Virus record (IMG/VR): IMGVR_UViG_3300025018_000487
Span: 1 to 26,055 of that record
Reading direction: 5' to 3' (one strand)
DNA: 26,055 nucleotides
Source: a virus
Taxonomy: Duplodnaviria; Caudoviricetes
Shown here: positions 1 through 24,819 of the stretch, one piece after another
Numbering within the stretch: the stretch's first letter is position 1
How the letters are laid out: the number at the start of each line of letters is the position of its first letter
The notes under the pieces: model-generated
The model's input: the letters and a program-made list of their open reading frames with translations, nothing else
Told to the model about the DNA's origin: nothing
Databases searched by the model: none
Translations under genes and position numbers: made by a program

Positions 1-76
1 GTAGCACTCGCTTGATCTCGGCGGGTAGATGGCGCAGCACTTCTCGGGTGACGGTGGGTGGGATGCGCTCGCTCAT
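1..76 (-). CDS. Hypothetical protein, N-terminal part (runs off the left edge)
   Basis: ATG at 76-74 overlaps the TGA of the 73..408 gene (ATGA coupling); frame MSERIPPTVTREVLRHLPAEIKRVL is open to the edge. Confidence 0.6.
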   Translation of the reverse strand, partial: MSERIPPTVTREVLRHLPAEIKRVL

Positions 77-408
77 GGCTTGATCCCCAAGGCAGCACGA
101 AGGCGACGCATCGCCTCTCGGGACCAGGACGTGTCAGCGAGTCCCATGCGTTCGCCGACGCCTCCCTCGGCTTCGTAGAGCACCCGTTCGATGTGCTCGG
201 TCGTGAGCCTGTCCCCTGGGGCGGGCAAGACGGGGCGCTCGGCCCACCACGTGTACTCGGAGTGCCCGTTCTCGTCCGGGAGCACCGTGTAAGCAACATC
301 GAAGTCGCTGTTGCCTTTGTCGTCCCCGAAGCAAATCCAGCGCTCCATGTCCCCCGTCGGTGGGCTTTCGGGCAGCGGGTGAAGCGTCAGCATCAGCACG
401 TCAGGCAT
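73..408 (-). CDS. Hypothetical phage protein (111 aa)
   Basis: ORF in a chain of overlapping minus-strand genes; purine-rich SD-like sequence upstream. Confidence 0.75.
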   Translation of the reverse strand: MPDVLMLTLHPLPESPPTGDMERWICFGDDKGNSDFDVAYTVLPDENGHSEYTWWAERPVLPAPGDRLTTEHIERVLYEAEGGVGERMGLADTSWSREAMRRLRAALGIKP

Positions 409-586
409 GTGGGCGTCCCCCTTCGTCGGCTACAGTTTGCGCCCACGCAGCTACAGTGAGCGCGAGCCGGTGGATGCCGTCGTGGTCACGGATGACCCGC
501 AGCGCAGCAATGGCAAGGTCGCACCCCGCTTGGCGCAGGGCAGCGTTCTCCCTAGCTAGGAACTGCTCGGAGGTCATGTTAGCCAC
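401..586 (-). CDS. Hypothetical phage protein (61 aa)
   Basis: GTG start with GAGGAGG upstream; overlaps both neighbours by 8 nt. Confidence 0.75.
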   Translation of the reverse strand: MANMTSEQFLARENAALRQAGCDLAIAALRVIRDHDGIHRLALTVAAWAQTVADEGGRPHA

Positions 587-911
587 GGCCTACCTCCTCG
601 ATGGCGCGACGAAGGCGAGCAGCGGCGGCGCAAAAGGACTTCGCCCATTGGCCCTCTAGGACTTCGATGGCAGTCCGCAGGTCGTCCATCGTGAGTGGCC
701 CGTGCTCGCTCTCAACGGGCGGACGAGGGTCACACCACACGGTGGGCTTGCAAGGCCCCTCCATGTCGGGCATCTCGAACTCCCAGGCCCGGCCACTGGG
801 CCAGCACCGAGCCATCCCCTCGTCGGTGAGTACGACCCTGCCAGCCCCTGGCGGGTCAGCCTTCGCGTCGCGCCACAGCACGAAGCCAATCACGGGCAGG
901 TCACTCGTCAT
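579..911 (-). CDS. Hypothetical phage protein (about 110 aa, MTSDLPVIG...)
   Basis: 3' part of the 579..1247 ORF. ATG at 911 preferred because the longer version overlaps 901..1338 and ATG 911 has a purine-rich upstream sequence. Confidence 0.7.
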   Translation of the reverse strand: MTSDLPVIGFVLWRDAKADPPGAGRVVLTDEGMARCWPSGRAWEFEMPDMEGPCKPTVWCDPRPPVESEHGPLTMDDLRTAIEVLEGQWAKSFCAAAARLRRAIEEVGRG

Positions 912-1338
912 CGTCTTCTCCCTTCGCTGGTCCAAGCCGGGGCGGCTCAAGTTCCACGTCCTCTGGTCCTGCGCCCCATGCGGGCTTGGAGCGGTAGGCC
1001 GCACGAGCATCGCCCTTCGTCGTCGGTAGGGTGGCGCGAAGGCGCAGCATCGCCAAGCGAAGCGGCTCGTTCGGCCAATCGGTACGACTCGCGTGGTGCA
1101 GCACCATCTGGACGTCGTCCGGGTCCGGGACGCGGGCTTGCAACTCTCGCAACCGCTCAAGGTACCGCGCGTCGTCTTGCTCGTACTTGGCGAGGGCGGC
1201 TTCGAGCGCCTCGATGCGGTCAGCAATCTTGTACAACCTTTCCCCATCAGGCAGCATGTTTACGTCAATCATGTAGTCATTCTGTGCCAGTGCTATGAGG
1301 AACTCTGCGTCGGTTGAGTCTGCGAAGTTCGTTCTCAC
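901..1338 (-). CDS. Hypothetical phage protein with coiled-coil segment (145 aa)
   Basis: GTG start with GGAAGGA upstream; GTGA overlap with the upstream gene stop. Confidence 0.75.
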   Translation of the reverse strand: MRTNFADSTDAEFLIALAQNDYMIDVNMLPDGERLYKIADRIEALEAALAKYEQDDARYLERLRELQARVPDPDDVQMVLHHASRTDWPNEPLRLAMLRLRATLPTTKGDARAAYRSKPAWGAGPEDVELEPPRLGPAKGEDDDE

Positions 1339-1517
1339 TGCTCATCCTTCCAAGAATGGTAGTCATAGTCAGCCTTCTCGTCTCTGTAGTCGGGTACAAT
1401 CGCCCGGTCCAAATCCGTCTCAGGACGGTGACGATACTCATCCTCGTACACCCTGTCCCAATAGATCTCCCACGTCTCTACTTCATCCATGTATCGGGGT
1501 CCCCACTCATGAGGCAT
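1335..1517 (-). CDS. Small acidic/aromatic hypothetical protein (60 aa)
   Basis: Fills the gap in the gene chain; 19/60 residues are D/E, many W/Y. Confidence 0.65.
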   Translation of the reverse strand: MPHEWGPRYMDEVETWEIYWDRVYEDEYRHRPETDLDRAIVPDYRDEKADYDYHSWKDEQ

Positions 1518-1725
1518 TGTCGCCCACCAGTTGGGTCCAGCCCCGCATCAGTTTGTCCATCGTGTTATCGAAGTGGTCGAAGTCTCGGAAGAAGAACGTC
1601 ACACCACCGAGACGCATGACGTAGACATCCGAACCTTCCACACCGAGAGGCTCCACGTTTACCCCCTCATCGTCCCCGTACAGGTGAACGTTAGCACTGA
1701 TAACAGGCTTCTTATCCATGAACAT
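1507..1725 (-). CDS. Hypothetical phage protein (72 aa)
   Basis: ATG with GGGAG upstream; overlaps both neighbours. Confidence 0.7.
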   Translation of the reverse strand: MFMDKKPVISANVHLYGDDEGVNVEPLGVEGSDVYVMRLGGVTFFFRDFDHFDNTMDKLMRGWTQLVGDNAS

Positions 1726-2662
1726 TTACTCCCATCAACAGGTCATACAGAAGTTCAGCCGATTCCTTTGGGTTCTCCCAAAGGAAATCCTCAACAGCAT
1801 CCTTTCTCAGTGTACCCCACTGCGCTTCCTGGACCAAGTCGTCAACGTTGGAATAGCCCTCGTAGGTACTCTTTGGCCCCCAATAGGAGTCGGCATACTT
1901 CCAAGGTGGACGCTGCTCGACAGAGAACGGGTCTCGACTCACGGGCAATCCTTCCCAGTCTACCAGCACACTGGCCTCAGCCATCTCCATCAGGAACCTG
2001 ACGTCCTGCGTCTCTGACGTTGTGTGCTGGTTGTAATAGCCGATGCTGATGTTGGTACACTCAGGTACCTCATCAATGAACGAGTATGAATCTGTGTACG
2101 CCCCTCCGTTATCAGGTGCTAACACCACTCCGAAACGTTTGTACTCACCGACTAGTGCGTTGGTAAAGTCATCTGAACAACTGCGTTCACCCATTTGGTG
2201 AGTGATGATGCTCGTCTCTCCGTACCTGTCCCAGCATACTACACGGTCCATGCCATCTGCAATGCCGTCCTTGGCTGCGAATGTTGACCCGATGCGTCCC
2301 GACTCCTCCCCTACAAAGAACACGTACTTGCCAGGTACCTTGTTGCGGATCAGGTGCAGAAGGATGACGATACCAGACCGATTATCAGCACCGAGTATTG
2401 TTGCTCCATCTGTGCTGACGTAATCTCCCTTCACGACACGACGTACCTTTGTCATCTGCCTGTCAGCAGTGTCGATGTGTGCGGCAAACAATGTCCTAGA
2501 CGAACCAATCTCTAGGATGTAGTTACCGTGCGAATCCATCTCACACCCCAAATCCGTGAAGAAACTACCGAACCGCTGTTGCTCCGACCCGAAGGGTGAA
2601 GTGTACTTGGTCAGGTAGAAGAAGTCACGGACTGTGACGTGTTGGTTGAGTTTGGGATTGAT
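1712..2662 (-). CDS. Zn-dependent peptidase-like protein (M28/M20/M42 clan); probable non-canonical ATC start at 2662
   Basis: Motifs AHIDT, GADNRSG, GEESG, WDR, YTDS, CTNISIGYYNQH. The frame is open 37 codons upstream of the TTG at 2551, to an ATC preceded by GAGGAGG at 6 nt spacing. Family call is fairly firm; the start is less so. Confidence 0.8.
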   Translation of the reverse strand: MNPKLNQHVTVRDFFYLTKYTSPFGSEQQRFGSFFTDLGCEMDSHGNYILEIGSSRTLFAAHIDTADRQMTKVRRVVKGDYVSTDGATILGADNRSGIVILLHLIRNKVPGKYVFFVGEESGRIGSTFAAKDGIADGMDRVVCWDRYGETSIITHQMGERSCSDDFTNALVGEYKRFGVVLAPDNGGAYTDSYSFIDEVPECTNISIGYYNQHTTSETQDVRFLMEMAEASVLVDWEGLPVSRDPFSVEQRPPWKYADSYWGPKSTYEGYSNVDDLVQEAQWGTLRKDAVEDFLWENPKESAELLYDLLMGVNVHG

Positions 2663-2663
2663 G

Positions 2664-4244
2664 TTAGTCCTCCTCGTCTTCCTCTGGGATGTCTTCGTCG
2701 TCTACGTGGTACCAGTCGTCACCACGGCACACTGCGTTATCAATGTCAACCCACTCGCCGTCGTATTCACCGGCAGTAAGTTGCACAATTTCCACAGTCA
2801 TCGTGGTCCAACGAGGACGATACTCTGGAATGAGGTAGTACACACCATCAGGTTCAGAGTACGCGATGCGGTAGTCATCGGGATGCCCATACCCATACAT
2901 AACGTTACTCAACGAGACTGCATCCTCTGTCGCAATCGTCTCTTCAAACACATCCGTGACATACAGTTCTGAGTAGCAGGACTCACACGTTAGCTCCCCA
3001 TCAGGGGTAGAGAACGCGTAGTCCAGGTGCTCCCGTGTGTTGCAATTAGCGCAACGGAAGTAGTTCTCGTCATCCTCAAACGGAGACACGTTATCTGTAC
3101 TCCGCATCTCACCGAAGAGAGCCTCCGACGAGTTATTTGTCAGGATGTAGTACCCGTCCTCATCAGGAGAAGTGACGACGTACCCAAACGTATCCATGTA
3201 CGGGTAATACTCGTTATCCTTGACGTGGACGTAGTAGTCGTTATCATCTGATAACGCACCATCAATCGTGTGTTCGACCTTGTACACCCACCCCTTATCC
3301 GAAGCGTACTTCATACCAGCACGAACGTGGGCACCACCATCAGACGGGTATATGCGGTCGAGAATCGTCACCTTCTCACCGTGTTTAGAGTTCCGATGTG
3401 CCTCCCAGATTAGAGCACGGCCAACCAGAGCATCCTTCTCGTTCAGGATACGCAGCAGACGCACGTTCTCCTGGTCGTTGTAGAACTTGGTCGCATCCCC
3501 ACTATGCATGCACGAGCCAAAGTATGACTCACGGTACGTCTTGCGAATCTTAGTCCCGCTTACCTCCTCAAACTTGTATTCAGGTAGACGCAGGTTCTCA
3601 CCAACCCAGTTAGAAACCTCCTCGATTTGCTGGTCAGTGAACCGCATCCCGTACTTATGACGCAACATCCCTAGGAACTTAGTCCACCGAGCAGAGTGTC
3701 GCTTAGAGTCCCCGTATCGCTCAGTCGTCGGATTACACTCGTACCAGTGAATGACACGAGGCTCAGCCTGGTCGATGTGGGTAGTATACAGGATGCGGAT
3801 TAGTTGCTTTAACTGTGGGTAATACCAGTGGGCAGCAACTAGGGCACTATTTTCCAGCTCCCAACTCCGCATGTTCACGTTCAGTTGCTCACGAGACTGG
3901 TCAAGCCCCTGCTCTAGCAGCGTCATTACCTTACTGTACGACATGTAGCGGCACGCATCGTAGTCAGCTACTTTGTCGGGGTTTTCTTGGATAAACCATT
4001 CCAGTCGGTTTGCTACCTTGCGACGAAGGCTTCGTGTGTATGCAACTTGAAGGAACGACAACGGCAAGAACTTATGGATGACCCTCCAATCGTACAGTGC
4101 CCACAAAGCCTCAGGAACTTCGTTTGCGACCTTGTTCCGCATGATTGTTTTCATGCAGAAGTTGTTCTTCGCAGCAAAGTCTCTGTTCGCAGGCTCAAGG
4201 TACGGCATGAAGTCGGACAGACGGAAGTGTGTATTGAGGTACAT
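2664..4244 (-). CDS. Hypothetical phage protein (526 aa) with GSCM...GRALIW...LDRIY core, CxxC..CxxC Zn ribbon and acidic tail
   Basis: Long ORF with SD GGAAGGGA; CANC and CESC pairs near the C-terminus. Confidence 0.85.
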   Translation of the reverse strand: MYLNTHFRLSDFMPYLEPANRDFAAKNNFCMKTIMRNKVANEVPEALWALYDWRVIHKFLPLSFLQVAYTRSLRRKVANRLEWFIQENPDKVADYDACRYMSYSKVMTLLEQGLDQSREQLNVNMRSWELENSALVAAHWYYPQLKQLIRILYTTHIDQAEPRVIHWYECNPTTERYGDSKRHSARWTKFLGMLRHKYGMRFTDQQIEEVSNWVGENLRLPEYKFEEVSGTKIRKTYRESYFGSCMHSGDATKFYNDQENVRLLRILNEKDALVGRALIWEAHRNSKHGEKVTILDRIYPSDGGAHVRAGMKYASDKGWVYKVEHTIDGALSDDNDYYVHVKDNEYYPYMDTFGYVVTSPDEDGYYILTNNSSEALFGEMRSTDNVSPFEDDENYFRCANCNTREHLDYAFSTPDGELTCESCYSELYVTDVFEETIATEDAVSLSNVMYGYGHPDDYRIAYSEPDGVYYLIPEYRPRWTTMTVEIVQLTAGEYDGEWVDIDNAVCRGDDWYHVDDEDIPEEDEED

Positions 4245-4280
4245 TACGCAATCCCTTCCGTTAGCAGATGATAACAGACG

Positions 4281-4412
4281 TCATTCTTCGTCGAACTCGT
4301 CTGCATCGAAGTCTTCCCACCAATCTGTGTCCTCGTTGGCGTGTGCCCAGCTCAGTGCGTCCTCAAGCTGCTCGTCAATCCAGTTTGCGTCTTGGAAGTA
4401 GTCGTCACGCAT
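4281..4412 (-). CDS. Very acidic 43-aa protein (absent from the ORF track)
   Basis: MRDDYFQDANWIDEQLEDALSWAHANEDTDWWEDFDADEFDEE*; start overlaps the end of the upstream gene and the ORF fills the gap. Confidence 0.7.
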   Translation of the reverse strand: MRDDYFQDANWIDEQLEDALSWAHANEDTDWWEDFDADEFDEE

Positions 4413-4569
4413 CGTCAATCTCTTCCGCTTCATTCACGCTACCCACAGTCACGTTGAGTTGCCGCAAGTACAGCTCTATGGAACGAGCAGCGTGGTTAGC
4501 AATCTTCCAGGCTTCGGCGAGGCTGTTAGCAGGGATGACAAGGGTGACGTCGACAGTGTAGGTCTTCAT
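4405..4569 (-). CDS. Hypothetical phage protein (54 aa, MKTYTVDVTL...)
   Basis: ATG at 4569 with GGAGGA upstream, 1 nt after the previous stop. Confidence 0.7.
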   Translation of the reverse strand: MKTYTVDVTLVIPANSLAEAWKIANHAARSIELYLRQLNVTVGSVNEAEEIDDA

Positions 4570-4570
4570 C

Positions 4571-4762
4571 TTACCAGTCCTCCAAAGTGGTGCTATCTGG
4601 GAGTACATTCAGCTCAATTGCTTGCCAAGATTCTCCCTCTGGTGCGAGCTCTTGTGCGAGGTCTCTCTCAAACTTAGCGTCTGCTTCGCTCTCGTAAACT
4701 TCGGGCCACAAAATGTAATCCCTCTGAGGGGTAATCCCGCGAAGAAGCCAAACAGTTTTCAT
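4571..4762 (-). CDS. Hypothetical phage protein (63 aa)
   Basis: TGATG stop/start coupling with the upstream gene. Confidence 0.75.
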   Translation of the reverse strand: MKTVWLLRGITPQRDYILWPEVYESEADAKFERDLAQELAPEGESWQAIELNVLPDSTTLEDW

Positions 4763-4983
4763 CAGTCTGCTCCGAGGGTACTCCGCACAATAGTACGGTA
4801 GTCTTTATCAAGTGACACCCAAGAGTGGAAGTTCTCGTCTGTCAGCGCGTCAATCCACTCAAGTTCCAAGTCCAGCAGCACCTCCCGTGCAAGGCTGATC
4901 TTACGTGCGTTGGTTTGGTTCTGCATGTACCTCCACGCTTTCACCATTCGGTCGTAGGTATCATTGAGGACGTCAGTACCCAT
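4762..4983 (-). CDS. Hypothetical phage protein (73 aa, MGTDVLN...)
   Basis: TAATG coupling; SD GGAGG upstream. Confidence 0.75.
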   Translation of the reverse strand: MGTDVLNDTYDRMVKAWRYMQNQTNARKISLAREVLLDLELEWIDALTDENFHSWVSLDKDYRTIVRSTLGAD

Positions 4984-5183
4984 TACTCCCCTCCTACCCA
5001 AAGGTACTCACGAACGATTTGCCCGTTGCAATCCTTATAGAGCAACGGAGCATCGTTGACATGGGCAACGCCGAGGACTTGACACCCGGACTCGGGAACA
5101 CTGATGTACGCCAGCGCGAAAATGGCTGCAACGAGAATCAGGAATAGTGCCCACCTTTCTCGGACAAACCACAGGAAATCCAT
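4983..5183 (-). CDS. Small membrane-anchored protein (start 5183 or 5225)
   Basis: Hydrophobic stretch WALFLILVAAIFALAYISV followed by a short two-Cys domain. Confidence 0.65.
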   Translation of the reverse strand: MDFLWFVRERWALFLILVAAIFALAYISVPESGCQVLGVAHVNDAPLLYKDCNGQIVREYLWVGGE

Positions 5184-5194
5184 TAAGCCACGTA

Positions 5195-5353
5195 TTATCG
5201 CATCCTCACGTAACGCTGCAAGCACTCATTCCACACAGTCCGAACTTTTGGTTGTGCAGAGAACTTAGTCCGCATGTTAGCAGTGATAACAGCCACAGTG
5301 TTGCGTTGTTCATCACGGTCGAGTTGCTGTCGGTTTCGTGGCGTCTGGTACAT
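5195..5353 (-). CDS. Small basic hypothetical protein (52 aa, MYQTPRNR...)
   Basis: ATG at 5353 with SD GGAAGGA, preceded by a palindrome copy. Confidence 0.65.
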   Translation of the reverse strand: MYQTPRNRQQLDRDEQRNTVAVITANMRTKFSAQPKVRTVWNECLQRYVRMR

Positions 5354-5383
5354 GGCAATCCTTCCGTTAGCAGTTGCTAACAC

Positions 5384-5772
5384 CCGCCGAGGACGCTACA
5401 CTCCGGTAATGTGACGTCCCAGGCGGCGAGGAATGTATCTGTGTATTGATACAGTGATGGCCAATCCTACCCCTCCGCACCGCTTTAGCCCCTGGTCCGT
5501 GGCACGTTTGTCAGACGCTACACAGCAGCCGCTAGTTTGCTCTGTCATGCGGAGGTCTATTGTCTGTTATCAGATGATAACGTCATGCTGCCGAGACTAC
5601 CCGGCGCAAGGTTATCCTACTCACGTCCCCACCTACTCCGCTAGATTTCACGCCCGGTCGTCTACTCTGACGGTCCCAAACAGGACAGGGGGTGCTAGCG
5701 TACTCCGTGGTTGCTGCGCTTTCGGTATGTTATCAGTTGCTAACGCTGTGCCAGACGCACTTCCTTTCAACT
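5384..5772 (-). ncRNA. Candidate large structured non-coding RNA or long 5' leader
   Basis: Directly downstream of a TTGACT-17-TATACT promoter; no convincing ORF with an SD. Nested complementary pairs: 5761-5765/5429-5433, 5683-5695/5477-5498, 5666-5671/5510-5515, 5636-5641/5549-5554. 3' hairpin at about 5384-5427. Family not identified. Confidence 0.55.
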
Positions 5773-5778
5773 AACCAC

Positions 5779-5807
5779 AGTATAGCACACGGGACCAATA
5801 GAGTCAA
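5779..5807 (-). promoter_or_regulatory. Sigma70-type leftward promoter
   Basis: TTGACT-17 bp-TATACT with TG extended -10. Confidence 0.8.
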
Positions 5808-5850
5808 ATCTACACGGACCCCGTAAAATAGATCGAGCCTTAAACCTACA

Positions 5851-5935
5851 ATGCCTCTGTCGTGCTCTGCAGTCCCCCTAGGAGGCCCTAGAAACTTTTC
5901 TGAGGGTTAGGACACTAGGGGGACTACCGAGGCAT
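5851..5935. repeat. Long imperfect stem-loop
   Basis: AGTCCCCCTAG (5871-5881)/CTAGGGGGACT (5915-5925); outer ATGCCTC/GAGGCAT; inner AGAAA/TTTCT. Confidence 0.7.
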
Positions 5936-6169
5936 CTTCCTAGGCTTCTCAGAGCCTCAAATCACCTGTTCCGTGATTTGTGGGGAACCATTCACTTCAT
6001 ACGCTACCGCGTCCTCACCCCATCCGAGCAATAGGCGTAGGAAGTAGTCCAGAGCTTGCCGCGTGTTTATCCGGGCAGTAGATCACATGTTTGTTCATCA
6101 TCACTGCTGTCGGTGTTTATTAGCACAAAGGGTGTCCAGGCGGGTTTAGGGCGTTTTACGTGAGTCATG

Positions 6170-6289
6170 TTATCGCCTGCTAACACGTTCCCAGAACGGA
6201 ATGACAATCTCATCCCAGATGTACACTACTCCGACCATGATCCCCAGCACCCCCATGAGCTGCGTCCACAGGTACCACGCCGTCCCCAT
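6170..6289 (-). CDS. 39-aa single-pass membrane peptide (absent from the ORF track)
   Basis: MGTAWYLWTQLMGVLGIMVGVVYIWDEIVIPFWERVSRR*; TAATG coupling with the upstream gene. Confidence 0.6.
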   Translation of the reverse strand: MGTAWYLWTQLMGVLGIMVGVVYIWDEIVIPFWERVSRR

Positions 6290-6480
6290 TAGAGGTGCGT
6301 CGCAGTCACTACCGTGTGGCGTCCCTGCATCTCACGCCGCAGACGGTGGATGTGGTTGCGCCAACTAGCAGACCATCCGTTGACCTCCTCAACGTCCACA
6401 GCGTCCCCATGCCCTTGGGCACACCGGATGATGACGTCCACATCTCGACGTTCCAACCAGCTAAGTTTACGACCGTTCAT
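6289..6480 (-). CDS. Hypothetical phage protein (63 aa, MNGRKLSW...)
   Basis: ATG at 6480 with GGAG upstream; first gene after the 6582-6610 promoter. Confidence 0.7.
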   Translation of the reverse strand: MNGRKLSWLERRDVDVIIRCAQGHGDAVDVEEVNGWSASWRNHIHRLRREMQGRHTVVTATHL

Positions 6481-6581
6481 GGTGCGTCTCCAATCTGTTA
6501 TCAGGTGATAACGTCCGCAGTATAAGTGCGGCAAGATAGACGTCCCCAACACAATGGCGTCCCCAATGCGCTCACAACTAA

Positions 6582-6610
6582 AGTGTAGCGCAGCACAGCG
6601 ATAGAGTCAA
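6582..6610 (-). promoter_or_regulatory. Sigma70-type leftward promoter
   Basis: TTGACT-17 bp-TACACT; shares TTGACTCTAT with the 5779-5807 promoter. Confidence 0.75.
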
Positions 6611-6655
6611 GCCCACAGATATCCTGGTCGATATCATCCGATAACGCTAGACTGT

Positions 6656-6687
6656 CCCTGATAACCTACCCTACCCCCCGTGGTACC
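6656..6687 (+). repeat. Left arm of a 32-bp imperfect inverted repeat
   Basis: CCCTGATAACCTACCCTACCCCCCGTGGTACC matches the reverse complement of 7275-7306 at 28/32 positions. Confidence 0.85.
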
Positions 6688-6694
6688 GCTTAAG

Positions 6695-7207
6695 TTATGA
6701 CTTAGGGACGAGGCTCTGGATGACGTCGGGCACGGTGATACCGGCTGCCACCGCGATGGCGCTAAGCGCGTCGTACGTGGCGCGATCAAGCTTTACTGAC
6801 ACGGTTTCGGCGGCGGCGGCGCTCTTAGGCTTAGGGCGGTTCGCCGGGATGCTATCCCATGCGGCCCGTAGCGCGTCGTCCTCGAGTTGGGTGGCTTTAC
6901 CGTCCGGTCCCTTTGGCTTGCCAAGCGACCGCCACGCGTAAGCGTGGAATGGCGAGTGAGCACCCGTCGCCACAGCGCCCCAGATCTTATGGGACGCTCC
7001 TAACTGCCGCACGGTGCTAGCTTTCGGGCAGGGCAGGATGGCCGCGGGTTCGGACTCCTGCGCCTTGCGCCACGCCGACGCAATCACGTCATACGTAGTG
7101 TCGGCGTCGGTTCGTGCGGTAGCGACGTGACGAGCCAGCGCCCAGTACGCGTCGTTGTTCTTGCCAGAGGTAGTGAGGATGGTCGTAATGATCCTGGTAA
7201 GGCTCAT
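6695..7207 (-). CDS. Putative DNA-binding protein with C-terminal ribbon-helix-helix (CopG/Arc-like) domain (170 aa)
   Basis: C-terminal TVSVKLDRATYDALSAIAVAAGITVPDVIQSLV has the beta-alpha-G-alpha RHH pattern after a PKPKSAAAA linker; ATG at 7207 preferred over 7282. Confidence 0.65.
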   Translation of the reverse strand: MSLTRIITTILTTSGKNNDAYWALARHVATARTDADTTYDVIASAWRKAQESEPAAILPCPKASTVRQLGASHKIWGAVATGAHSPFHAYAWRSLGKPKGPDGKATQLEDDALRAAWDSIPANRPKPKSAAAAETVSVKLDRATYDALSAIAVAAGITVPDVIQSLVPKS

Positions 7208-7274
7208 TTTCGTATCCGTTCTGTCAGCGGGTGCTAACGATGCTAGGAACGTGGTGCTGCGACGGATGGGCACA

Positions 7275-7306
7275 GGTACCACGGGGGGTGGGATAGGTTG
7301 TCAAGG
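7275..7306 (-). repeat. Right arm of the 32-bp imperfect inverted repeat (contains TTGACA on the minus strand)
   Basis: Reverse complement is CCTTGACAACCTATCCCACCCCCCGTGGTACC. Confidence 0.85.
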
Positions 7307-7778
7307 TACGCCGGCCGCGGGGGCTTAGTCCCCGTTGGCTTACCCTAAGTATGATTGGTGCCGGTTCTATTGAGTGTACGATACTTCACAGTCCGCCTTC
7401 ACCGGATTCTCATCCGTGTCTCATGCTGGGGGTGTAAAGGCTCGTTCGATCCTACCGGGTGGGGGGTATGTTCATTCCTCACCTACCAGGGGGCAGGTGT
7501 AGATCCAAACTATACCATCGATGAAGTGGTATGGTCTGTCTCACTTGCCTTAGATAATGAGATATGATCTAAGTATGTACGCTGTACATACCCTTATACC
7601 CTAAGAGAAGGTAGTTTAGAATAGAACGTATACTATACTGTATGTACAGAGAAACCCCCATCCCCCAAAACACACCCCCCACACACTGGAAAAAATACAC
7701 CGCTATAGGATTTCAGTAAAAAACATGCTAACTGTTCTTGTATAGACATAAACTATCACCATATACGAATCCACAGAC

Positions 7779-7808
7779 TTGACAAAGGGGGTGGCAGCGT
7801 GCTATAAT
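7779..7808 (+). promoter_or_regulatory. Sigma70-type rightward promoter
   Basis: TTGACA-18 bp-TATAAT with TG extension; SD AAGGAG follows before ATG 7839. Confidence 0.85.
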
Positions 7809-7838
7809 GGGATATAAGAAAGGAATTAAGGAGACCTT

Positions 7839-8429
7839 ATGGCTAAGTTCAACCTAACCGACTACCTAGCTGACACCAACGAACCCCTCATCGTCAGTTT
7901 TAGCAACTTCTTGAGGGAATACGGCCTGACGACACGGGTAGAATACGACTTCTGGGACCTTTTAGGGTACGGAGAGGACGATAACCCTGAAATTGCGGTC
8001 CTTGTGAGACGCAATAAGCTGTCCCCAAACGAGATTTTCCGTCTCACAGAGAAAATTGCCCCCCAAAAGGCCGTGTTGCTGGAAGGAGAGCAGATTCCTT
8101 GGGACGATATCGACACAATGAAGCTCTTTTGTGCCTCAATCGGGGTTTCTCTGTACATTCGCAACGTCGGATGGATCGCCAGCAAGACGAAACCACTGGT
8201 CGAGAAGACGGATGACTGGCATTTCCGGGTTCTGGACCGCTACAGCCAGGATGAACACGGAAACTGGGGCAAGTTCTGTACCCGATGTGGCGAGTGGCTG
8301 CCTACCTGGGAATTCTACCGCCGAGGAGCGCGCGACCGCAACGCCAAGGACCCATATCGGAACATCTGCAAAGCCTGTTCCAACCGCACGTGGCACAAAT
8401 CGAAGGCCAAGGACTTGACAACGCGGTAA
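7839..8429 (+). CDS. Hypothetical protein with C-terminal CxxC..CxxC zinc ribbon
   Basis: KFCTRCGEWLPTWEFY...RNICKAC is a Zn-finger pattern common in phage nuclease/regulatory proteins; strong SD. Confidence 0.8.
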   Translation: MAKFNLTDYLADTNEPLIVSFSNFLREYGLTTRVEYDFWDLLGYGEDDNPEIAVLVRRNKLSPNEIFRLTEKIAPQKAVLLEGEQIPWDDIDTMKLFCASIGVSLYIRNVGWIASKTKPLVEKTDDWHFRVLDRYSQDEHGNWGKFCTRCGEWLPTWEFYRRGARDRNAKDPYRNICKACSNRTWHKSKAKDLTTR

Positions 8430-8443
8430 ATCCGTGGTATAAT
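8415..8443 (+). promoter_or_regulatory. Sigma70-type promoter for the replication genes
   Basis: Perfect TTGACA-17 bp-TATAAT with TG extension. Confidence 0.9.
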
Positions 8444-8500
8444 AGTTCTTGTGGTCAGCTTCGAATCTCTCCTTCCTTACCAACGACAACCTGAAAAGAG

Positions 8501-10222
8501 GTGTCAGTGACAGACAGAGAGCAAACGGTAACATTCCTCAACATGCTGTTTGACGACGACGACATCTTTGAAGTCCGAGTGAAGTCCAACTCACAGAACG
8601 GAGCAAACCAACACTGGATTCCGAAGACGAAACAAGGCCAGTTCGTGGATGTACACCTCGACATCCACAAGCGGAACAAGAGGCACGTGTGGGTAGGCGT
8701 AGGTCCTCGTGATAAGGTGGGTAGCACGAACCCCGCTTTGCTACGTGCCCTCTGGGTAGACCTCGACGCTAGCGTTACGACGCAGGAAGGATTGGATGCC
8801 GCACTCAACCAGTCAGGACTCCCAGAACCCACGATGGTGGTCTGGTCCGGTAACGGATACCACCTGTACTGGGCTTTGTCAACTTCCGTCAAGGGAGACG
8901 ATATCCGAGCTTACGCACGAGGAGTCCATAGCGCTCTCCCTTCTGACAACACTCATGATCCGACTCGGGTTATGCGAGTGCCAGGAACTTGGAATTTCAA
9001 AGATGAGGAGCACCCAAAGCAATGTCTAATCCTGAAGCACAACTCGAACCTGAGGTACGAGTTAGCAATCTTTCCAAAGACGTCGTCTACGTATCTTGGG
9101 CAGGTTACCGAATCGATGCCGTCATCGAAGGAACTCTCCACGGCGGACTTCGACTTGTTCGTGAGCAACTGGCTGGACGGGCAGAAGCACACGATGGCGG
9201 TGGGGGTAGCGGGCTACCTTCGGAAGAATCTGTATATGGCGAGAGAACAGGCCGTGGCGACCGTCGCAAGAATTCATCAAGCAGCGGGGTACAGCTGGCC
9301 TGATCAGAATCTCATCAAGGTCGTGGACGATACCTACAACCGAATGTTTGCGACGGTATCTGGGTTAAGCAAGCTATACGAGCTTGGGGTAGTACCCGAC
9401 GTCAAGGATGCTTTCCAAGTTAGGTTCGTGACACCCAAGCCCCCCAAAGTCCCACTGATTGACTTCACACAAGAGATTGAGCCGCAGGAGTTCTGGGCAG
9501 AAGGTCTTGTCGGTCCTGGTATGCTCACGATTTGGGCCGCACAACCCAAAACTGGTAAGAGTTTTGCAGTCATGCAACTCGGTCATGCGCTCTCTCAGGG
9601 ACGAAACATTTGGGGATTCAAGGTACCCAAGGCAGTGCGTGTGCTGTACTTCCAGGGGGAGCTGAGCAAGGGCATGGTGGCTGAGCGAGCCATCAGTATG
9701 TTTGGCAGGGAAAGCCTAACCAACCCACGGCAGTTCGCAATGACGGATAAGCCCGACGAAACCATTAGCCTGATTCAGCACCCAGAGGTTCTGAACGACA
9801 TCGCGGAAAACTACGACGTCATCATCGTTGACCCACTCAGCGCGTTCAACTCCAACGATGAGAACTCGTTTACCAGTGTACGTGAGACTATTAGCGTATT
9901 CGATTCCTTGAAGGCGAAAGGAAAGGCGGTCATCGTTGTCCACCACACGAGGAAGCTTCAGACTGATCGAGCGGGCAATGTCGTTCCTCCGACTTCCAAC
10001 GATATCCGTGGTTCCTCTGCTTGGTTTGGTGCTGCTGATGCTATTGCAATGCAGTACACCACCCCCGAAGGAAGCTGCAAAGTCAAGTTCACCTTTAGGG
10101 CTGCTAGAGATAGGGATGTCCTCACTCTTTATCCTCGCCTAACTGGTGGATTCACTGACGACCGAGACCTTTATCTGAGTGAGCACAACACGTTGAAGAT
10201 CGCGTCCTCCATGCTCAACTGA
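8501..10222 (+). CDS. Primase-helicase fusion (RepB'-like AEP primase plus AAA_25/RepA-like helicase)
   Basis: WVDLD, SGNGYHLYW and DPTRVMRVPGTWN primase motifs; Walker A AQPKTGKS, Walker B IIVDP, VHHTRK, RGSS. Confidence 0.9.
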   Translation: MSVTDREQTVTFLNMLFDDDDIFEVRVKSNSQNGANQHWIPKTKQGQFVDVHLDIHKRNKRHVWVGVGPRDKVGSTNPALLRALWVDLDASVTTQEGLDAALNQSGLPEPTMVVWSGNGYHLYWALSTSVKGDDIRAYARGVHSALPSDNTHDPTRVMRVPGTWNFKDEEHPKQCLILKHNSNLRYELAIFPKTSSTYLGQVTESMPSSKELSTADFDLFVSNWLDGQKHTMAVGVAGYLRKNLYMAREQAVATVARIHQAAGYSWPDQNLIKVVDDTYNRMFATVSGLSKLYELGVVPDVKDAFQVRFVTPKPPKVPLIDFTQEIEPQEFWAEGLVGPGMLTIWAAQPKTGKSFAVMQLGHALSQGRNIWGFKVPKAVRVLYFQGELSKGMVAERAISMFGRESLTNPRQFAMTDKPDETISLIQHPEVLNDIAENYDVIIVDPLSAFNSNDENSFTSVRETISVFDSLKAKGKAVIVVHHTRKLQTDRAGNVVPPTSNDIRGSSAWFGAADAIAMQYTTPEGSCKVKFTFRAARDRDVLTLYPRLTGGFTDDRDLYLSEHNTLKIASSMLN

Positions 10223-10232
10223 AAGGAGACCC

Positions 10233-12542
10233 ATGAGGGTCTACGCCAACGCTGCCGAACTCCGCTCTAAACTTGACCCCGAATTATTTACTGACATGAC
10301 CGCGGTGCTGGGGGAGGGAAACGCTAACCCCGACGTCATTCTGGTAAGAGGCGTACCTACCGGCTGGGATGTGGGAGCACGTAAGCCCTTCATGGGCGAA
10401 GACGGGCTTGCCATCCGTAAGGCTCTGGTGCGGGAAGGTATCAAGTTCTACGCCACTACAGCCTTCCCCTTCTTCCGACCAGGCTACACGATGAAGGTCG
10501 CTGAGGGTCGGAAGGCTGCGGCAGTTCTTGAGCACGAGATTGAATCCCTACCCTGCAAGAACTATGTGCTCTTTGGGGCTGACGCTGTGAAGCTGATGCC
10601 GCTATTCAACTTTGAGTACCAAAAGTTTAATAGCCTCTATGGTCGTTCAATTGAGGTTAATAACCGGAACTTCCGAGTGTTCCCACATACGTCGGTTGTG
10701 GCTCGCACCCCTAGCCTGTACTCCGAGTTTATCGACGGGGTAAAAGACTTAGTGGGACTACGCAAGACGGACGTACCCAGAACCCCAAAGACCGAATGCT
10801 ATCATGCTCATACCAACAAGATGCTAGCTAAGAAGGTCTTGAGTCATATGGGCGACGTAGTAGCGTGCGATGTTGAGACTACCGGCTTGGATCCCTACAC
10901 CTGCCGTATTCTTACGGTTCAGGTATCGTGGGTTGAGGGAGTAGGTCACGCCTTCCCGTGGGACATGTTCACCTCGGAAGAGTGGCAGACGTACCTCGGC
11001 AAGAAGAAGTTGATTTTCCAGAATGGAACGTACGACGTCAAGGTGCTGGCTAATAACGGTGTTATGTGTTCTATCCACGAAGACACCATGCTGATGCACA
11101 GCCTGATTGACGAGACCCCAGGTACCCACTCCATGGAACAGATGGCCCACAAGTACCTAGGCATCGACAAGTGGGGTGATACCGTCAACTACGAGGCGAT
11201 GGAGCAGAACGACTTCAAGACCCTCGGACGATATGGAGCACGAGATACTGACATCACCCTTCGCTTGGCCAACAGGTTTCGTCCTGGGGTACAGACTCGG
11301 CACATCCACCGGGTACTGACTGACGCCCAGAACGCCATCACACGTACGGAACTGCGGGGTATCCGGATCAATCGAGACTTGGCCTTCCAGTTCCAGGACG
11401 AAATCCAAGGCCACTTGCACGACAAGCAGCGGTACCTCGAGGACGCATACGGGCTTAAGAACCCCAACAGTCCCAAGCAGGTAGCTGCCTTGCTCTACGA
11501 TGACATGGGACTTCCCGTTCAAAAAGAGAAGGGCAAAGTTACGACGAACTCTGTGGCACTGGAAGCTCTGGCTTCTGAGGCTCCTCTTGTGCGGGACATC
11601 CTCGAGTATCGTCACCTCACCAAAGCGAACGGCACGTATCTCAGTAACATCCTAGCTGCATCAGAACATGACGGACGTTATCATGCAGACTTTAGGTTAG
11701 CGGCGACAGAAACAGGAAGATTGGCTGAGAGGCTTGTCATGCTCATTCCCCGCGCAGGGGAGTGGGAAGGCCAGGATTTGGGCCAACAGTATCAAGCTCG
11801 CCTGCGGGAACTGTTTATCGCAGATGATGGATACGTTCTTGTTGGAAGTGACTATTCAGGACTTGAGGTCTCGATGGCCGCCCACCTGACTGGCGACAAG
11901 CAATTGATTCAGGATATCCACGACAGACTCGATACCCACTCCGCCGTCGCAATCCAGGCGTTCGGGCTTGACGAGCCATTGGAGCCATATGACACCCTCA
12001 AGAAACGAGTCAAAGAGAAGTACGGGCACTATCGTGACCTGGCTAAGCAAGGTACTTTCACGTGGCTGTACGGCGGTTCAAGATCGGCTATTGCCCGCCA
12101 ACTACAGGTGGGGAACGACGTGGCGGACTCTATCCTGGGCACCCTCCGTACTCGATATCAAGGTGTCGCTTCGTGGCATGAGGCTGTCCGCGAGGCGGTT
12201 CAAAGAGAAGGTAGCATCTCGACTCCGTGGGGTCGTACGCGTCATTTCTTCTTTCATCCAGGACTTGAGCGAAAGGTAACGGAAGAACAACTCCGGGAAA
12301 GCACGAACTCCCCCATCCAGGGTATGTCCAGCGACATGACCCTTGCCGCGTTCACTAGGCTTGAGAACGAAGGGCACCAGACTTTGTTCCCCCTTCACGA
12401 CGCGGTGTACCTGCAAACCCCCGAAAATCGGGCAGACGACACCATGGCTAGGGTCAAGCACGTCATGGAAACTATTCTACCAGGACCAGTCCCCTTCAGA
12501 GCAGATGCTAAGTGGGGACGAGATTGGGGTTCATTGGGATGA
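10233..12542 (+). CDS. polA: Family A DNA polymerase with N-terminal uracil-DNA glycosylase-like domain and 3'-5' exonuclease
   Basis: Exonuclease motifs DVETTG, QNGTYD, YGARD; polymerase motifs TETGRL, DYSGLE, RDLAKQGTF..LYG, NSPIQG, HD; N-terminal GEGNANPDV...KPFMGEDG resembles family-4 UDG. Confidence 0.93.
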   Translation: MRVYANAAELRSKLDPELFTDMTAVLGEGNANPDVILVRGVPTGWDVGARKPFMGEDGLAIRKALVREGIKFYATTAFPFFRPGYTMKVAEGRKAAAVLEHEIESLPCKNYVLFGADAVKLMPLFNFEYQKFNSLYGRSIEVNNRNFRVFPHTSVVARTPSLYSEFIDGVKDLVGLRKTDVPRTPKTECYHAHTNKMLAKKVLSHMGDVVACDVETTGLDPYTCRILTVQVSWVEGVGHAFPWDMFTSEEWQTYLGKKKLIFQNGTYDVKVLANNGVMCSIHEDTMLMHSLIDETPGTHSMEQMAHKYLGIDKWGDTVNYEAMEQNDFKTLGRYGARDTDITLRLANRFRPGVQTRHIHRVLTDAQNAITRTELRGIRINRDLAFQFQDEIQGHLHDKQRYLEDAYGLKNPNSPKQVAALLYDDMGLPVQKEKGKVTTNSVALEALASEAPLVRDILEYRHLTKANGTYLSNILAASEHDGRYHADFRLAATETGRLAERLVMLIPRAGEWEGQDLGQQYQARLRELFIADDGYVLVGSDYSGLEVSMAAHLTGDKQLIQDIHDRLDTHSAVAIQAFGLDEPLEPYDTLKKRVKEKYGHYRDLAKQGTFTWLYGGSRSAIARQLQVGNDVADSILGTLRTRYQGVASWHEAVREAVQREGSISTPWGRTRHFFFHPGLERKVTEEQLRESTNSPIQGMSSDMTLAAFTRLENEGHQTLFPLHDAVYLQTPENRADDTMARVKHVMETILPGPVPFRADAKWGRDWGSLG

Positions 12543-12545
12543 CAC

Positions 12546-12935
12546 ATGCCAAAGAAAACACTCAAAGTAAGTATGAAGCGACGGAAGGACAAGGGCAGTG
12601 ACCAAGAAGACTTATTTGCTGCCCAGCTATTTGGGGCAGGGTTCAAAGATTTTCTACGAAACGTCAAGTTTATCCCTGGAAGAAAGTTCGAAGCAGATTT
12701 TTTCTTTCCCTCATTACGACTTGCAATTGAAGTTGACGGGGGACTCTGGATGTCCAGAGGGGGTCATACATCAGGAGGTGGTGCTAAGCGAGACCGTGAA
12801 CGAGATATCTTGGCGTATCTTAGCGGCATCACCACACTCCGGGTAGCGACGGACCACGTGAAGTCTGGCGAAGCGATTACTTGGATGAAGGAAGCTATCC
12901 CATTGCGGGAGAAAGAAATCCATGGGGATTCGTAG
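12546..12935 (+). CDS. Vsr/DUF559-like PD-(D/E)xK endonuclease
   Basis: RKFEADF...LAIEVDGG..GGHT...DRERD pattern. Confidence 0.8.
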   Translation: MPKKTLKVSMKRRKDKGSDQEDLFAAQLFGAGFKDFLRNVKFIPGRKFEADFFFPSLRLAIEVDGGLWMSRGGHTSGGGAKRDRERDILAYLSGITTLRVATDHVKSGEAITWMKEAIPLREKEIHGDS

Positions 12936-13371
12936 ACGCATTGCCTACGCGTACCCAGGGAAGCACAAGGTAGGGATTGCAGGCGTTGTAATGGACGACA
13001 AGCGCGTTCACAAGATTGCCATTGGCTCTCTAGAACGTAGCGTCGTCCCTGCCCTACTCACCAGCTTCAAACCTGACGAACTTGTAGTCGCCATCGACAA
13101 GCTTTATGACCAGAAGGAAGCTCATGTATTTGTCCCCGATACCGTCAAGAAATTTAGGTTCGCACACCCAGGGTGGGCCGAGCGACGAGTACCTCTTACC
13201 GACAGAACGAATCCTCACCAGGGCATCTACATCCACAACGTGTGGAAACTCTTCTACGATGATTGCATCCGACGAAGTGACTTCATCCTCTCGCACCTAG
13301 ACATTGACGTCTTTGACATCGACTGGGTAGCGGCGAATCGACCGACAGGAGTCAGGCTAAATGACCGATAA
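12922..13371 (+). CDS. Hypothetical phage protein (149 aa)
   Basis: ORF overlapping both neighbours within the operon; no motif recognised. Confidence 0.7.
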   Translation: MGIRRRIAYAYPGKHKVGIAGVVMDDKRVHKIAIGSLERSVVPALLTSFKPDELVVAIDKLYDQKEAHVFVPDTVKKFRFAHPGWAERRVPLTDRTNPHQGIYIHNVWKLFYDDCIRRSDFILSHLDIDVFDIDWVAANRPTGVRLNDR

Positions 13372-13759
13372 CATCCGAGAGTACATTCTGAACCATGAGT
13401 CTAGGGACCCCTCGGTGATCGCCAAGGCAGCCACCAAGGAGTTCGAGAAGTTCGTCCCGGTGGCTGAGGTGGTCAAAGCTCTGTCCGTGCAGAAGCGGCA
13501 AGAGCGTATGGGCCAACTGAAGGGTAAGGTCGCTGAGACCCTGGACGATAAGTTTGTAGTCATGGAGAACGTCAGTGGTAAGTTGCTGATGGCGTTTAAT
13601 AATGAGGCCCTTCCCCTCAAGGAACGAATCGAGGCAGCAAAGGAACTTCGTCAGTGGACCCGCATGGGCATTGACCTGTCCGGTATTCACGATGAGGAGA
13701 CTGACACGCTATTCGTCATCGACCCTTCGTGGAGTCCCGAGGCTCGTGATGTGAACTAA
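13361..13759 (+). CDS. Hypothetical protein, possible terminase small subunit (132 aa)
   Basis: Size, helical character and TAATG coupling to terL; the function is inferred from position only. Confidence 0.5.
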   Translation: MTDNIREYILNHESRDPSVIAKAATKEFEKFVPVAEVVKALSVQKRQERMGQLKGKVAETLDDKFVVMENVSGKLLMAFNNEALPLKERIEAAKELRQWTRMGIDLSGIHDEETDTLFVIDPSWSPEARDVN

Positions 13760-16083
13760 TGAAGATGTCTAAGCTTGACTTCGGCACCCCGAACCCCGTT
13801 CAGGCCAGGGCGCTAGAAGCCTTCCGAGAAGGGAAGCGTATCGTCCTGATGAGCGGAGGTCGGCAGATCGGGAAAGCCCTAGGTCTTGATACCCCGATTC
13901 CTACTCCCCAGGGGTTTACTCGTATGGGTGAAATCCGAGTGGGGGATACAGTATTTGGTTCTAACGGAGAGCCGGTTAAAGTGGTTGGTGCTACAGATGT
14001 CATGCACAATCACGAAGTGTATGAAGTGCAATTCTCTACTGGCGAAGTTGTCGTTGCTGATGCAGACCATCAGTGGTTTACTATCTCAAAGTCTGAACGT
14101 AAACGTGGAAAGATTGGTAAGGTTCGTACGACACGAGAAATTTCTGAACGGGTTATGGTGGGGAAAGAGTACAATCATTACGTGCCCCAAACTTTTCCAG
14201 TTATGCTTCCCCATAGGGAACTCCCCCTATCTCCCTATGTCTTGGGAGTATGGCTTGGGGATGGGACCTGTGGGCAGCCCCATGTTACCATAGGGTCTAA
14301 GGCTGATTTAACTATCCCTCGTGTGGAGTCTGAAGGCTTCTCTCTTCGTAGGCTCTATTCTTCCCCCTATCGTTACAGCGTTGGGGAGCGTGGGAACAAG
14401 TACCACCCATGCGATCTCACTGTGGCTCTCAAGGAATTGGGGGTCTACTACGAGAAGTCAATCCCCCAGGAGTACCTGAGAGCGTCTCTGTCACAAAGGC
14501 GGGCTTTGTACGACGGGTTGATGGGCACAGACGGTCATGTGAACAAGAAAGACTACGCGGAAATTACATTTAGAGACAAGGCTTTGATCGAAGGGATGCG
14601 AGAACTGGTTGCTTCTTTGGGGTTTAAACCAGGCCCCATTACTCACAGACCTGAGGTTAACGCCTATCGTTTGACTTGGCTAACTAGAGCGGTCCGTCCT
14701 CGTGCGGTAGTGCGAGTCACCCCGATCCCTAGCGTACCCGTTAGGTGTATCGAAGTAGATGCTTTCGATCATATGTTTCTTGTGGGTGAGGGATTTATCC
14801 CCACCCATAATAGCCACCTGGGTGCCCGTTGGCTAATCACCCAGACGATGAAGCCCAACGACAAGTTCAAGCTAGCTGCCGCAGTCGCCCCCACCTACCG
14901 CATGGCACGAGTCCTCCAACGGAAGATTGAGGAAGTCCTGAAGGAAGACCCCAGCCTGTGGAAGAAAATCACTCACCGCAAGCAGCCCATCCCGACGTAC
15001 CAGTTCCCGAACGGATGGCTGATTGAGGTTCACTCGTCGGACGATCCCGATGCACTCCGTGGTCCTACCTTCTCTGCTGTCTGGTACGATGAGGTAGCCA
15101 AGGGAAGCAAAGAGTCGTTCGACATTATCATGCCTACCCTGCTTGCGTCCAAGGGTTCCTTTCTGGGGACCACGACGCCACGAGGGAAGCAGAACTGGAT
15201 TTACAACCAAATCTACCTGAAGTCTTGCCCACCTGGGCACCCCGACCACACCCCTGAATCCTACAACCCAGCCTACGCTACCATCACCGGCTCTACGTGG
15301 GATAACGCTGAGAACCTGTCCATTGAGGCTGTGCAGCAGCTTGAGGATCAGTACGGGGTAGGCAGCATCTTCGGACGTCAGGAAGTCGCTGGCGAGTTCG
15401 TCAGCTACGAAGGCTTGGTCTACGAGTGGGATGAAGCGAACTACATCCCCGTGAGCCAAGTTCCACCCATGGAAGACTTCGCCCAAGTGATTGGAGGGAT
15501 TGACTTTGGATGGACAGACCCAGCAGCCGCCTATGTTCTGGGTTACAAGGATGGAGTATGGTACGTCGTTGATGGGGTTTATGAATCACGTCTTGAACCC
15601 AACGACTTCGCCCTTGCCATTGGGGAACTTGGAGACCGCTACAAGGTCCGAGTCTGGTACGCTGACTCTGCCCGACCGGATGCGATTGCTGACCTGAACT
15701 CTCGTGGTCTGCCGGTCCTGCCGGTTATCAAGCCGCGTATTGAAGACCGCATCCGAGAGATGGCGATGTTCACCGACAACTACAGATTCAAGGTGAGTCA
15801 TCGCGCCCCCGACGTGAGGAACGAACTCCAAACCTACCAGTACCCCGACGAGACGCGACTCCAACGAGACAGACTCCGCAACCCAGTTGACAAGAATAAC
15901 CACGCACTCGACGCTATTGGCTACGCAGTCTGGTCAGTTCGATGGCTGTGGCGCAATGATGCTAGTTACAGGATTAAAGGCGACCGAGTAGAGAAGGACG
16001 ACGACGATGAGAAAGCGTTCATCCGAGTCAACTCCAAACGAAGGGGGTCCAGCAGTACACCGGCTGGACTTTACGGTAGCTAA
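13759..16083 (+). CDS. terL: Terminase large subunit with intein
   Basis: Walker A GRQIGK|S split by the intein, LRG, Walker B VWYDE, TTTPRG, nuclease motifs GIDFG and NHALDA. Confidence 0.95.
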   Translation: MKMSKLDFGTPNPVQARALEAFREGKRIVLMSGGRQIGKALGLDTPIPTPQGFTRMGEIRVGDTVFGSNGEPVKVVGATDVMHNHEVYEVQFSTGEVVVADADHQWFTISKSERKRGKIGKVRTTREISERVMVGKEYNHYVPQTFPVMLPHRELPLSPYVLGVWLGDGTCGQPHVTIGSKADLTIPRVESEGFSLRRLYSSPYRYSVGERGNKYHPCDLTVALKELGVYYEKSIPQEYLRASLSQRRALYDGLMGTDGHVNKKDYAEITFRDKALIEGMRELVASLGFKPGPITHRPEVNAYRLTWLTRAVRPRAVVRVTPIPSVPVRCIEVDAFDHMFLVGEGFIPTHNSHLGARWLITQTMKPNDKFKLAAAVAPTYRMARVLQRKIEEVLKEDPSLWKKITHRKQPIPTYQFPNGWLIEVHSSDDPDALRGPTFSAVWYDEVAKGSKESFDIIMPTLLASKGSFLGTTTPRGKQNWIYNQIYLKSCPPGHPDHTPESYNPAYATITGSTWDNAENLSIEAVQQLEDQYGVGSIFGRQEVAGEFVSYEGLVYEWDEANYIPVSQVPPMEDFAQVIGGIDFGWTDPAAAYVLGYKDGVWYVVDGVYESRLEPNDFALAIGELGDRYKVRVWYADSARPDAIADLNSRGLPVLPVIKPRIEDRIREMAMFTDNYRFKVSHRAPDVRNELQTYQYPDETRLQRDRLRNPVDKNNHALDAIGYAVWSVRWLWRNDASYRIKGDRVEKDDDDEKAFIRVNSKRRGSSSTPAGLYGS
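13876..14811 (+). mobile_element. Class 3 intein (312 aa) with LAGLIDADG-type endonuclease domain
   Basis: Starts ALGLDTPIPTP (Ala1) and ends PTHN before Ser+1; WCT triplet DHQW, VRCIEV, PTHN; LGVWLGDG and GLMGTDG motifs. Confidence 0.92.
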
Positions 16084-22485: not shown

Positions 22486-22534
22486 ACCCCTTGCTGCCTT
22501 TGGGTAGTCGCTGTACTTACAGCTAAGGAGCAAC

Positions 22535-23927: not shown

Positions 23928-23939
23928 CCCTGTAGGGCG

Positions 23940-24794: not shown

Positions 24795-24819
24795 ATAGTA
24801 TCCTTTCATTGGAGGTCAG

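Follow-up and report, generated by a model that had tools for sequence, protein, structure and literature searches.

For the Cluster A mycobacteriophages L5, D29 and StarStuff, one report (PMC5712189) describes a non-coding RNA, P-left, whose roughly 500 nt separate an early promoter from the first gene and whose region holds repressor sites. According to the same report, P-left RNA is more abundant than any other transcript of infection, about 90% of transcripts end there, a canonical terminator is absent, and the region is toxic when cloned. Among other large phage-borne RNAs, ROOL has a mean length of 581 nt and GOLLD is often longer than 800 nt, as given in PMC5737381 and PMC12286853. PMC9378689 places putL of HK022 just downstream of an early promoter and gives put RNAs a length of about 70 nt.

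Here we describe a predicted structured RNA of about 390 nt, with inferred ends, at 5383-5772 on the minus strand of a 26,055-nt window, the whole stretch of DNA that was analyzed (coordinates are those of the window unless stated otherwise). As with P-left, a gene-free interval of 400-500 nt runs from an early-type promoter to the first early gene, repeated repressor-type or operator-like sites lie in it, around it and along the arm, and a canonical terminator is absent in both. Unlike P-left, to which no sequence or model match leads, the sites here are 16-bp palindromes rather than asymmetric 13-mers, and the evidence is compensatory pairing known from sequence alone, whereas expression has been shown for P-left. 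Alignment to the L5 region scored 23 and 30 against 25.7 and 26.0 for shuffles, and a model search of the L5 P-left region reached at best 3.4 and 10.3 bits, neither of which indicates homology. The element resembles ROOL and GOLLD in being a large phage-borne RNA with several helices, candidate pseudoknots and no known protein partner, but it is shorter, occurs in two phages only, lacks a tRNA cluster and has no Rfam match at E 10. It resembles putL and putR as a structured RNA (here predicted) downstream of an early phage promoter with a long operon ahead, but at about 390 rather than 70 nt, with two large domains instead of two stems and in one copy only. Overall, the element is apparently uncatalogued and clade-restricted, and its layout resembles that of the P-left RNA of mycobacteriophages.

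The window covers part of a tailed phage genome. From 8501 on, its plus strand carries the genes for a primase-helicase, a family A DNA polymerase, terminase, portal and major capsid, and the left arm holds mostly small genes on the minus strand. A host search for this phage returned only distant and mixed matches. We gathered loci through two alignments, one of the primase for family members and a second for distant phages, and excluded the window's own contig (L030) from the homologue count. The stretch was matched in 1 of the 121 other loci, L032 (nhmmer E 6.8e-38), where the homologous region spans 1544-2030. The primase of this second phage is 67% identical to that of the window phage, and its copy of the element shares the strand and the distance to the primase, with an equivalent promoter before it and a homologous small gene after it; both contigs are fragments. 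Closer primase relatives on 13-46-kb contigs are present in the protein collection, at the protein level only. No match was found in four more distant members of the family with enough upstream DNA (L001, L003, L039 and L040), so the element is not general to the family.

Further searches for homologues added none. Models built from the two sequences and run on 20 loci with filters off gave scores only for the two training sequences. Exact patterns had 0, 0, 1 and 30 matches in IMG/VR; the single match was rejected since its surrounding sequence is unrelated by eye, and the 30 since similarity stops at the pattern in every one. One exact pattern had no match in GTDB genomes, the primase profile found no relatives there, and blastn against isolated phages and plasmids yielded only matches of 25-39 nt. 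DNA searches of 5 and 50 viral records and a model search of 50 produced no significant match, and single-protein scans of IMG/VR with the 526-aa and 195-aa neighbors did not find relatives. Word-based searching of the literature returned no description of this RNA. Its motif spellings are absent from four of the six text supplements of Fremin 2023 (PMC10690425), a source whose alignment files may bear on novelty.

The near-consensus promoter reported by the first-pass annotation, a model's reading of the letters, is present: a promoter-like site of the sigma-70 type with an extended -10 (5779-5807, minus strand) matches 10 of 12 consensus positions and has the extended TG. From its spacing, transcription is predicted to start near 5772. 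Such sites are no commoner in positions 1-13000 than in shuffles (8 against 7.9), and support for the promoter is therefore the equivalent site at the same place in L032 (2009-1980 of that locus). A short stretch just upstream of the -35 box (5817-5831, minus) is also kept in L032. The first downstream gene (5195-5353, minus) encodes 52 aa and is 46% identical to an L032 homologue that sits one gene further down. Genes on the same strand continue for at least 5 kb after the element, and because we found neither a U-rich terminator after it nor a further consensus promoter on the minus strand below 5779, the predicted RNA would also be the leader of the downstream operon.

Conservation of the element at the DNA level exceeds that of coding genes. 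Core identity between the two phages is 75% over 259 nt, compared with 69% for the primase, 64% for the polymerase and 71% for the terminase. Within the left arm, this element alone aligns with L032 at the DNA level, and neighboring small proteins are 36-46% identical. Identity over the full length is 65%, with 79% in domain A, 64% in domain B and 49% in the 3' hairpin. Mismatches are distributed 47/47/41 by position modulo 3, and indels of 1, 4, 3 and 1 nt break the frame. A 113-aa plus-strand ORF across the stretch was rejected as a gene because it stops in L032. An inner minus-strand ORF is open from the same position in both phages, for 50 codons in the window and 40 in L032. It too was rejected, given 3 synonymous versus 16 non-synonymous changes in 31 codons; by codon position its changes count 8/12/13, where the primase has 154/114/325, and its start codon shares bases with the best-supported helix. 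With both crossing ORFs failing in this comparison, the claim that no credible gene lies between the promoter and the ATG at 5353 stands. The first-pass annotation had named a homologue conserving a reading frame rather than base pairs as the finding that would overturn it; the opposite was seen, with the frame pattern absent and pairing kept, a combination that points to a conserved structured non-coding RNA.

Neither copy folds better alone than expected by chance. The window stretch had an MFE z of -1.49, with 7 of 100 shuffles folding as well, and its 54 helices of at least 7 bp compare with 48.5 in shuffles; the L032 copy alone gave z -1.16, within chance. Folded together, the two sequences reached -103.2 kcal/mol. 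Column shuffles preserving the conservation pattern averaged -57.2 (sd 6.2), with 0 of 100 as low (z -7.4), and the joint fold contained 22 double-changed pairs where 11.1 were expected. Four primase windows of similar identity served as controls and gave z values of +0.6, +1.8, -1.9 and +1.2. The opposite strand scored z -5.0, compared with -7.4 for the promoter's strand.

We also made the comparison non-circular by taking pairs from one sequence only. Among pairs predicted from the window alone, 18 of the 22 that are doubly changed in L032 still pair there (null 9.1; 1 of 5000), as do 26 of the 48 varying ones (null 16.0; 9 of 5000). In the reverse direction, with pairs predicted from L032 alone, 11 of the 20 doubly changed ones still pair in the window (null 8.4; 838 of 5000), which is not significant because L032 alone folds differently. 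Hence the covariation called for by the first-pass annotation is borne out by pairs predicted from the window and not by those from L032, and compensatory changes exceed chance in one direction in a comparison of two sequences. A curated set of 75 pairs formed in both sequences holds 16 double and 6 wobble changes, a descriptive count rather than a test because the pairs were chosen from the same two sequences. All 6 one-sided changes in these pairs lead to G-U on the promoter's strand, an observation that is partly circular. Compensatory pairing occurs in six helices, the operator hairpin not counted.

We infer two domains in the fold of the predicted RNA, which crossing helices may lock together. 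Domain A (5585-5728, minus), the most conserved part, comprises a long arm and then the hairpin 5605-5590; helices 5710-5707/5632-5629 and 5700-5696/5643-5639 and this hairpin carry 1, 2 and 2 double changes, respectively. Domain B (5472-5555, minus) has invariant inner stems and is closed by the best helix of the element (5555-5547/5480-5472), with 5 double changes and 1 wobble change in 9 pairs; its tip hairpin, 5518-5515/5507-5504, has 1 double change. Three candidate crossing helices of 5 bp each would connect domains A and B across 5510-5688 (minus), at 5688-5684/5546-5542, 5681-5677/5539-5535 and 5671-5667/5514-5510. Each contains one wobble-preserving change and zero double changes. Three were observed where 0.45 were expected (76 of 2000 shuffles), which is suggestive only, because the ranges were picked after seeing them and local hairpins compete for the bases. 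Further along, a 6-bp hairpin with an 8-nt loop (5434-5453, minus), read from the alignment and the window fold, occurs in L032 with other sequence and its register shifted by one base. The long G+C-rich 3' hairpin (5384-5426, minus) has no U run. Its stems, at only 49% identity, pair in both phages; among 12 pairs there are 4 double changes and 2 wobble changes, and the energies are -26.7 and -33.2 kcal/mol. Its conserved loop (5407-5403) contains the self-complementary CCGG.

These helices differ in part from those first proposed. All five pairs of complementary segments in the first-pass annotation exist where it placed them, but the long-range fold built from them keeps only 18 of its 36 pairs in L032, the other 18 being broken. 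The closing helix 5761-5765/5429-5433 (1 of 5 pairs kept) and the pseudoknot 5745-5750/5521-5526 (1 of 6) are lost, and 5683-5695/5477-5498 is about half retained (7 of 13). The segments 5666-5671/5510-5515 keep 5 of 6 pairs and belong in part to a candidate crossing helix. At 5636-5641/5549-5554, 4 of 6 pairs are kept, two of them by double change, and 2 are lost; the retained 4 bp (5639-5636/5554-5551) compete with better-supported helices and could make a switch. In place of the broken long-range pairs stands another helix, of 9 bp and with five compensatory changes. The local elements fared better: the proposed local hairpins are present, the one at 5604-5591 keeping 5 of 5 pairs in L032, and the 3' hairpin described as lacking a U-tract (5426-5384) keeps 12 of 12 outer pairs.

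The two palindromes said to be embedded in the element were found, together with a third copy directly after it. The first (5729-5744) lies near the 5' end, the second (5566-5581) forms a variable hairpin between the two domains, and the third (5366-5381) follows the 3' hairpin and precedes the next gene's ribosome-binding site. L032 keeps the same family at the middle position and swaps the outer two for another. The 16-bp palindrome occurs 7 times in exact form in the window, and 12 sites match it when up to 3 mismatches are allowed, against 1.8 expected; 8 of 8 near-perfect copies are in the left arm. The L032 arm has three copies of it and a second family, with 1-3-nt spacers, at seven sites. 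Along the arm, ten to eleven sites span 2108-7238 in the window, and those of L032 span 259-3341. This spread resembles that of the stoperators of mycobacteriophages: several copies immediately precede ribosome-binding sites, and two are within genes. At 5 of 11 sites in both phages, the halves are unpaired at the variable position, and an RNA hairpin was accordingly rejected as the palindromes' primary role. Because the halves vary independently, we read these palindromes as putative DNA operator sites for a dimeric protein. The predicted RNA seems to tolerate any hairpin at their positions, as the outer ones are swapped for the second family in L032; operator-like sites thus appear to have been exchanged inside spare hairpins of a predicted RNA gene.

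A tentative candidate for the palindrome binder is a 170-aa protein (6695-7207, minus) with a weakly ribbon-helix-helix-like C-terminus. The match to Pfam RHH_4 (E 0.014) is under the cut-off and was obtained on a 195-aa reading of the ORF. The protein is 33% identical over 57 aa to a syntenic L032 protein, and an Atlas structure search returned matches under the bar. Flanking the 170/195-aa ORF is a 32-nt inverted repeat, 88% complementary (6656-6687 and 7275-7306).

Next to known RNA classes the element stands apart. The Rfam covariance-model check suggested by the first-pass annotation gave no credible family match for the window, the stretch or L032. The best E values, 1.8 for the window stretch and 0.95 for L032, are far under gathering scores and belong to unrelated families; as positive controls, introns were detected, as were hammerheads in L040. 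We rejected ROOL, GOLLD, OLE, raiA, RNase P and known ribozymes, whose Rfam models found no match. The proposal of a compact member of the ROOL/GOLLD class fell with them, tRNAs being likewise absent from both fragments (0 in the window and none in L032). Resemblances to the RNase P S-domain and to HDV-type ribozymes, both judged by eye, fail at the Rfam level, and the HDV-type motif of the window is lost in L032. A CsrB-type sponge was rejected because only one hairpin loop bearing GGA is conserved. In other members of the family, tRNA genes lie just upstream of the primase: 11 in L039 (4076-5078), and others in L003 (8325-8395), L004 (887-957), L033 (1751-1823) and L040 (3793-3863). L040 also has two type II hammerhead ribozymes on its minus strand (654-721 and 232-299), at the 3' ends of consecutive left-arm ORFs.

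Group II introns received separate attention. An arm with internal loops resembles, by eye, what we take to be part of group II domain I. Both copies contain GUGYG about 13 nt past the predicted start (5760-5756 in the window, aligned in L032), a five-letter motif that PMC4424553 gives as the group II intron 5' boundary. The domain V model (RF00029) had 0 matches in the window at E 10 and finds six control introns, no domain VI and no similarity to domains I-III was found, and there is no reverse transcriptase near the element. The best local alignment to five intron loci scored 40 against 31.3 (sd 4.4) for shuffles, whose maximum was 43, and group II intron loci do not score with models of domains A and B. 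With domain V absent, the alignment within shuffle range and the models silent, identity with a group II intron was rejected.

With conservation above that of coding genes, no codon pattern, compensatory pairing, and promoter and position kept, we regard the element as very probably a real structured RNA. In this respect the first-pass proposal is supported, apart from most of its long-range fold: a large non-coding RNA with structure, encoded behind an early-type promoter of its own. An ordinary untranslated spacer or cryptic small gene, conserved through recent exchange instead of selection on the fold, would be in keeping with there being only two sequences, with single-sequence folds within chance and with an inner frame open for 50 and 40 codons. 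Recent exchange would not, however, leave stems fully paired at only 49% identity, and the inner ORF has the substitution pattern and helix overlap noted above, so that we think such an origin very unlikely. We see equally little likelihood in a single-stranded DNA structure acting as a replication, injection or packaging signal. The opposite strand does fold above shuffles, and palindromes of a protein-binding type lie in the region, but the promoter's strand scores better and takes all six one-sided changes as G-U (partly circular), the promoter is at a fixed distance, and the phage has its own primase-helicase and polymerase. Scarcely more probable is catalysis by the RNA, with the early transcript processed by a ribozyme that cleaves itself or derives from splicing. 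Long invariant stretches in unpaired or poorly resolved regions, the candidate crossing helices, GUGYG in both copies and the two hammerheads in the same arm of a family member are compatible with it. Yet neither domain V nor any ribozyme family was matched at E 10, and the intron comparisons stayed within shuffle range.

As to function, we give about an even chance to a stand-alone folded RNA that is made early, ends mostly at the 3' hairpin and acts in trans on a host factor. Host sigma-70 polymerase would start near 5772 as infection begins and produce an RNA of about 390 nt, with two domains that crossing helices might hold together. The 3' hairpin would be a partial stop or a nuclease block, with read-through supplying the downstream early genes, and a phage dimeric repressor would silence the unit via operator sites placed in hairpins that the RNA can spare. 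The stable RNA would then bind a host factor during host take-over; for this proposed trans action and its target, the L5/D29 P-left RNA serves as the analogy. A leader of the early operon that acts in cis, with the nascent RNA modifying RNA polymerase for read-through in a put-like manner or stabilizing the long early message and not being released as a separate RNA, is possible but on the unlikely side. The element does lie directly behind the promoter with at least 5 kb of same-strand genes ahead and no further consensus promoter, much as putL lies just downstream of an early promoter (PMC9378689); the element's 3' hairpin has no U-tract, and the competing pairing at 5639-5636/5554-5551, with two double changes, could act as a switch. 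On the other hand, it is five times the size of a put RNA, its conserved strong 3' hairpin suggests a defined end, and relatives with a similar left arm lack it. There would also be little obvious to read through, since a scan of the minus strand from 5383 to 2640 lists no terminator-like site and one at 2638-2624. A more doubtful form of the folded RNA would be a new, compact class with three pseudoknots, in which successive loop segments of domain A, three in all, would each pair with the segment of domain B that comes in the same order. The knotted core so formed would either be catalytic or, through the conserved self-complementary loop of the 3' hairpin, assemble into RNA-only oligomers. 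Catalysis would here process the early transcript, a job that hammerheads may do in L040.

Few structured RNAs of about 400 nt occur in bacteria and phages, and the large ones known so far have yielded ribozymes or unexpected RNA-only assemblies. This element is small enough for direct transcription and probing, and its two natural variants differ at a third of positions. Recurrence of the P-left layout with unrelated sequence suggests that on more than one occasion phages placed an abundant RNA at the head of the early transcript.

Other features of the window were recorded along the way. The 526-aa protein (2664-4244) belongs to no Pfam or PHROG family, has distant relatives in Cellulophaga, Thermus and very large phages, and adjoins an M28-like peptidase (1712-2551). 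A 20-nt inverted repeat links 7642-7661 and 8139-8158. Terminase profiles match two separate parts of the 774-aa terminase gene (13759-16083), and the gene has an insert whose ends look like those of an intein. Among the tail genes, a tyrosine recombinase is divided over two adjacent minus-strand ORFs (24264-24809 and 23940-24263), with G+C lower than its left neighbor and best plasmid matches of 41-43%. Finally, positions 1-1300 and 22500-24000 have a G+C content of about 65%, against 51-58% elsewhere, which suggests acquired modules.
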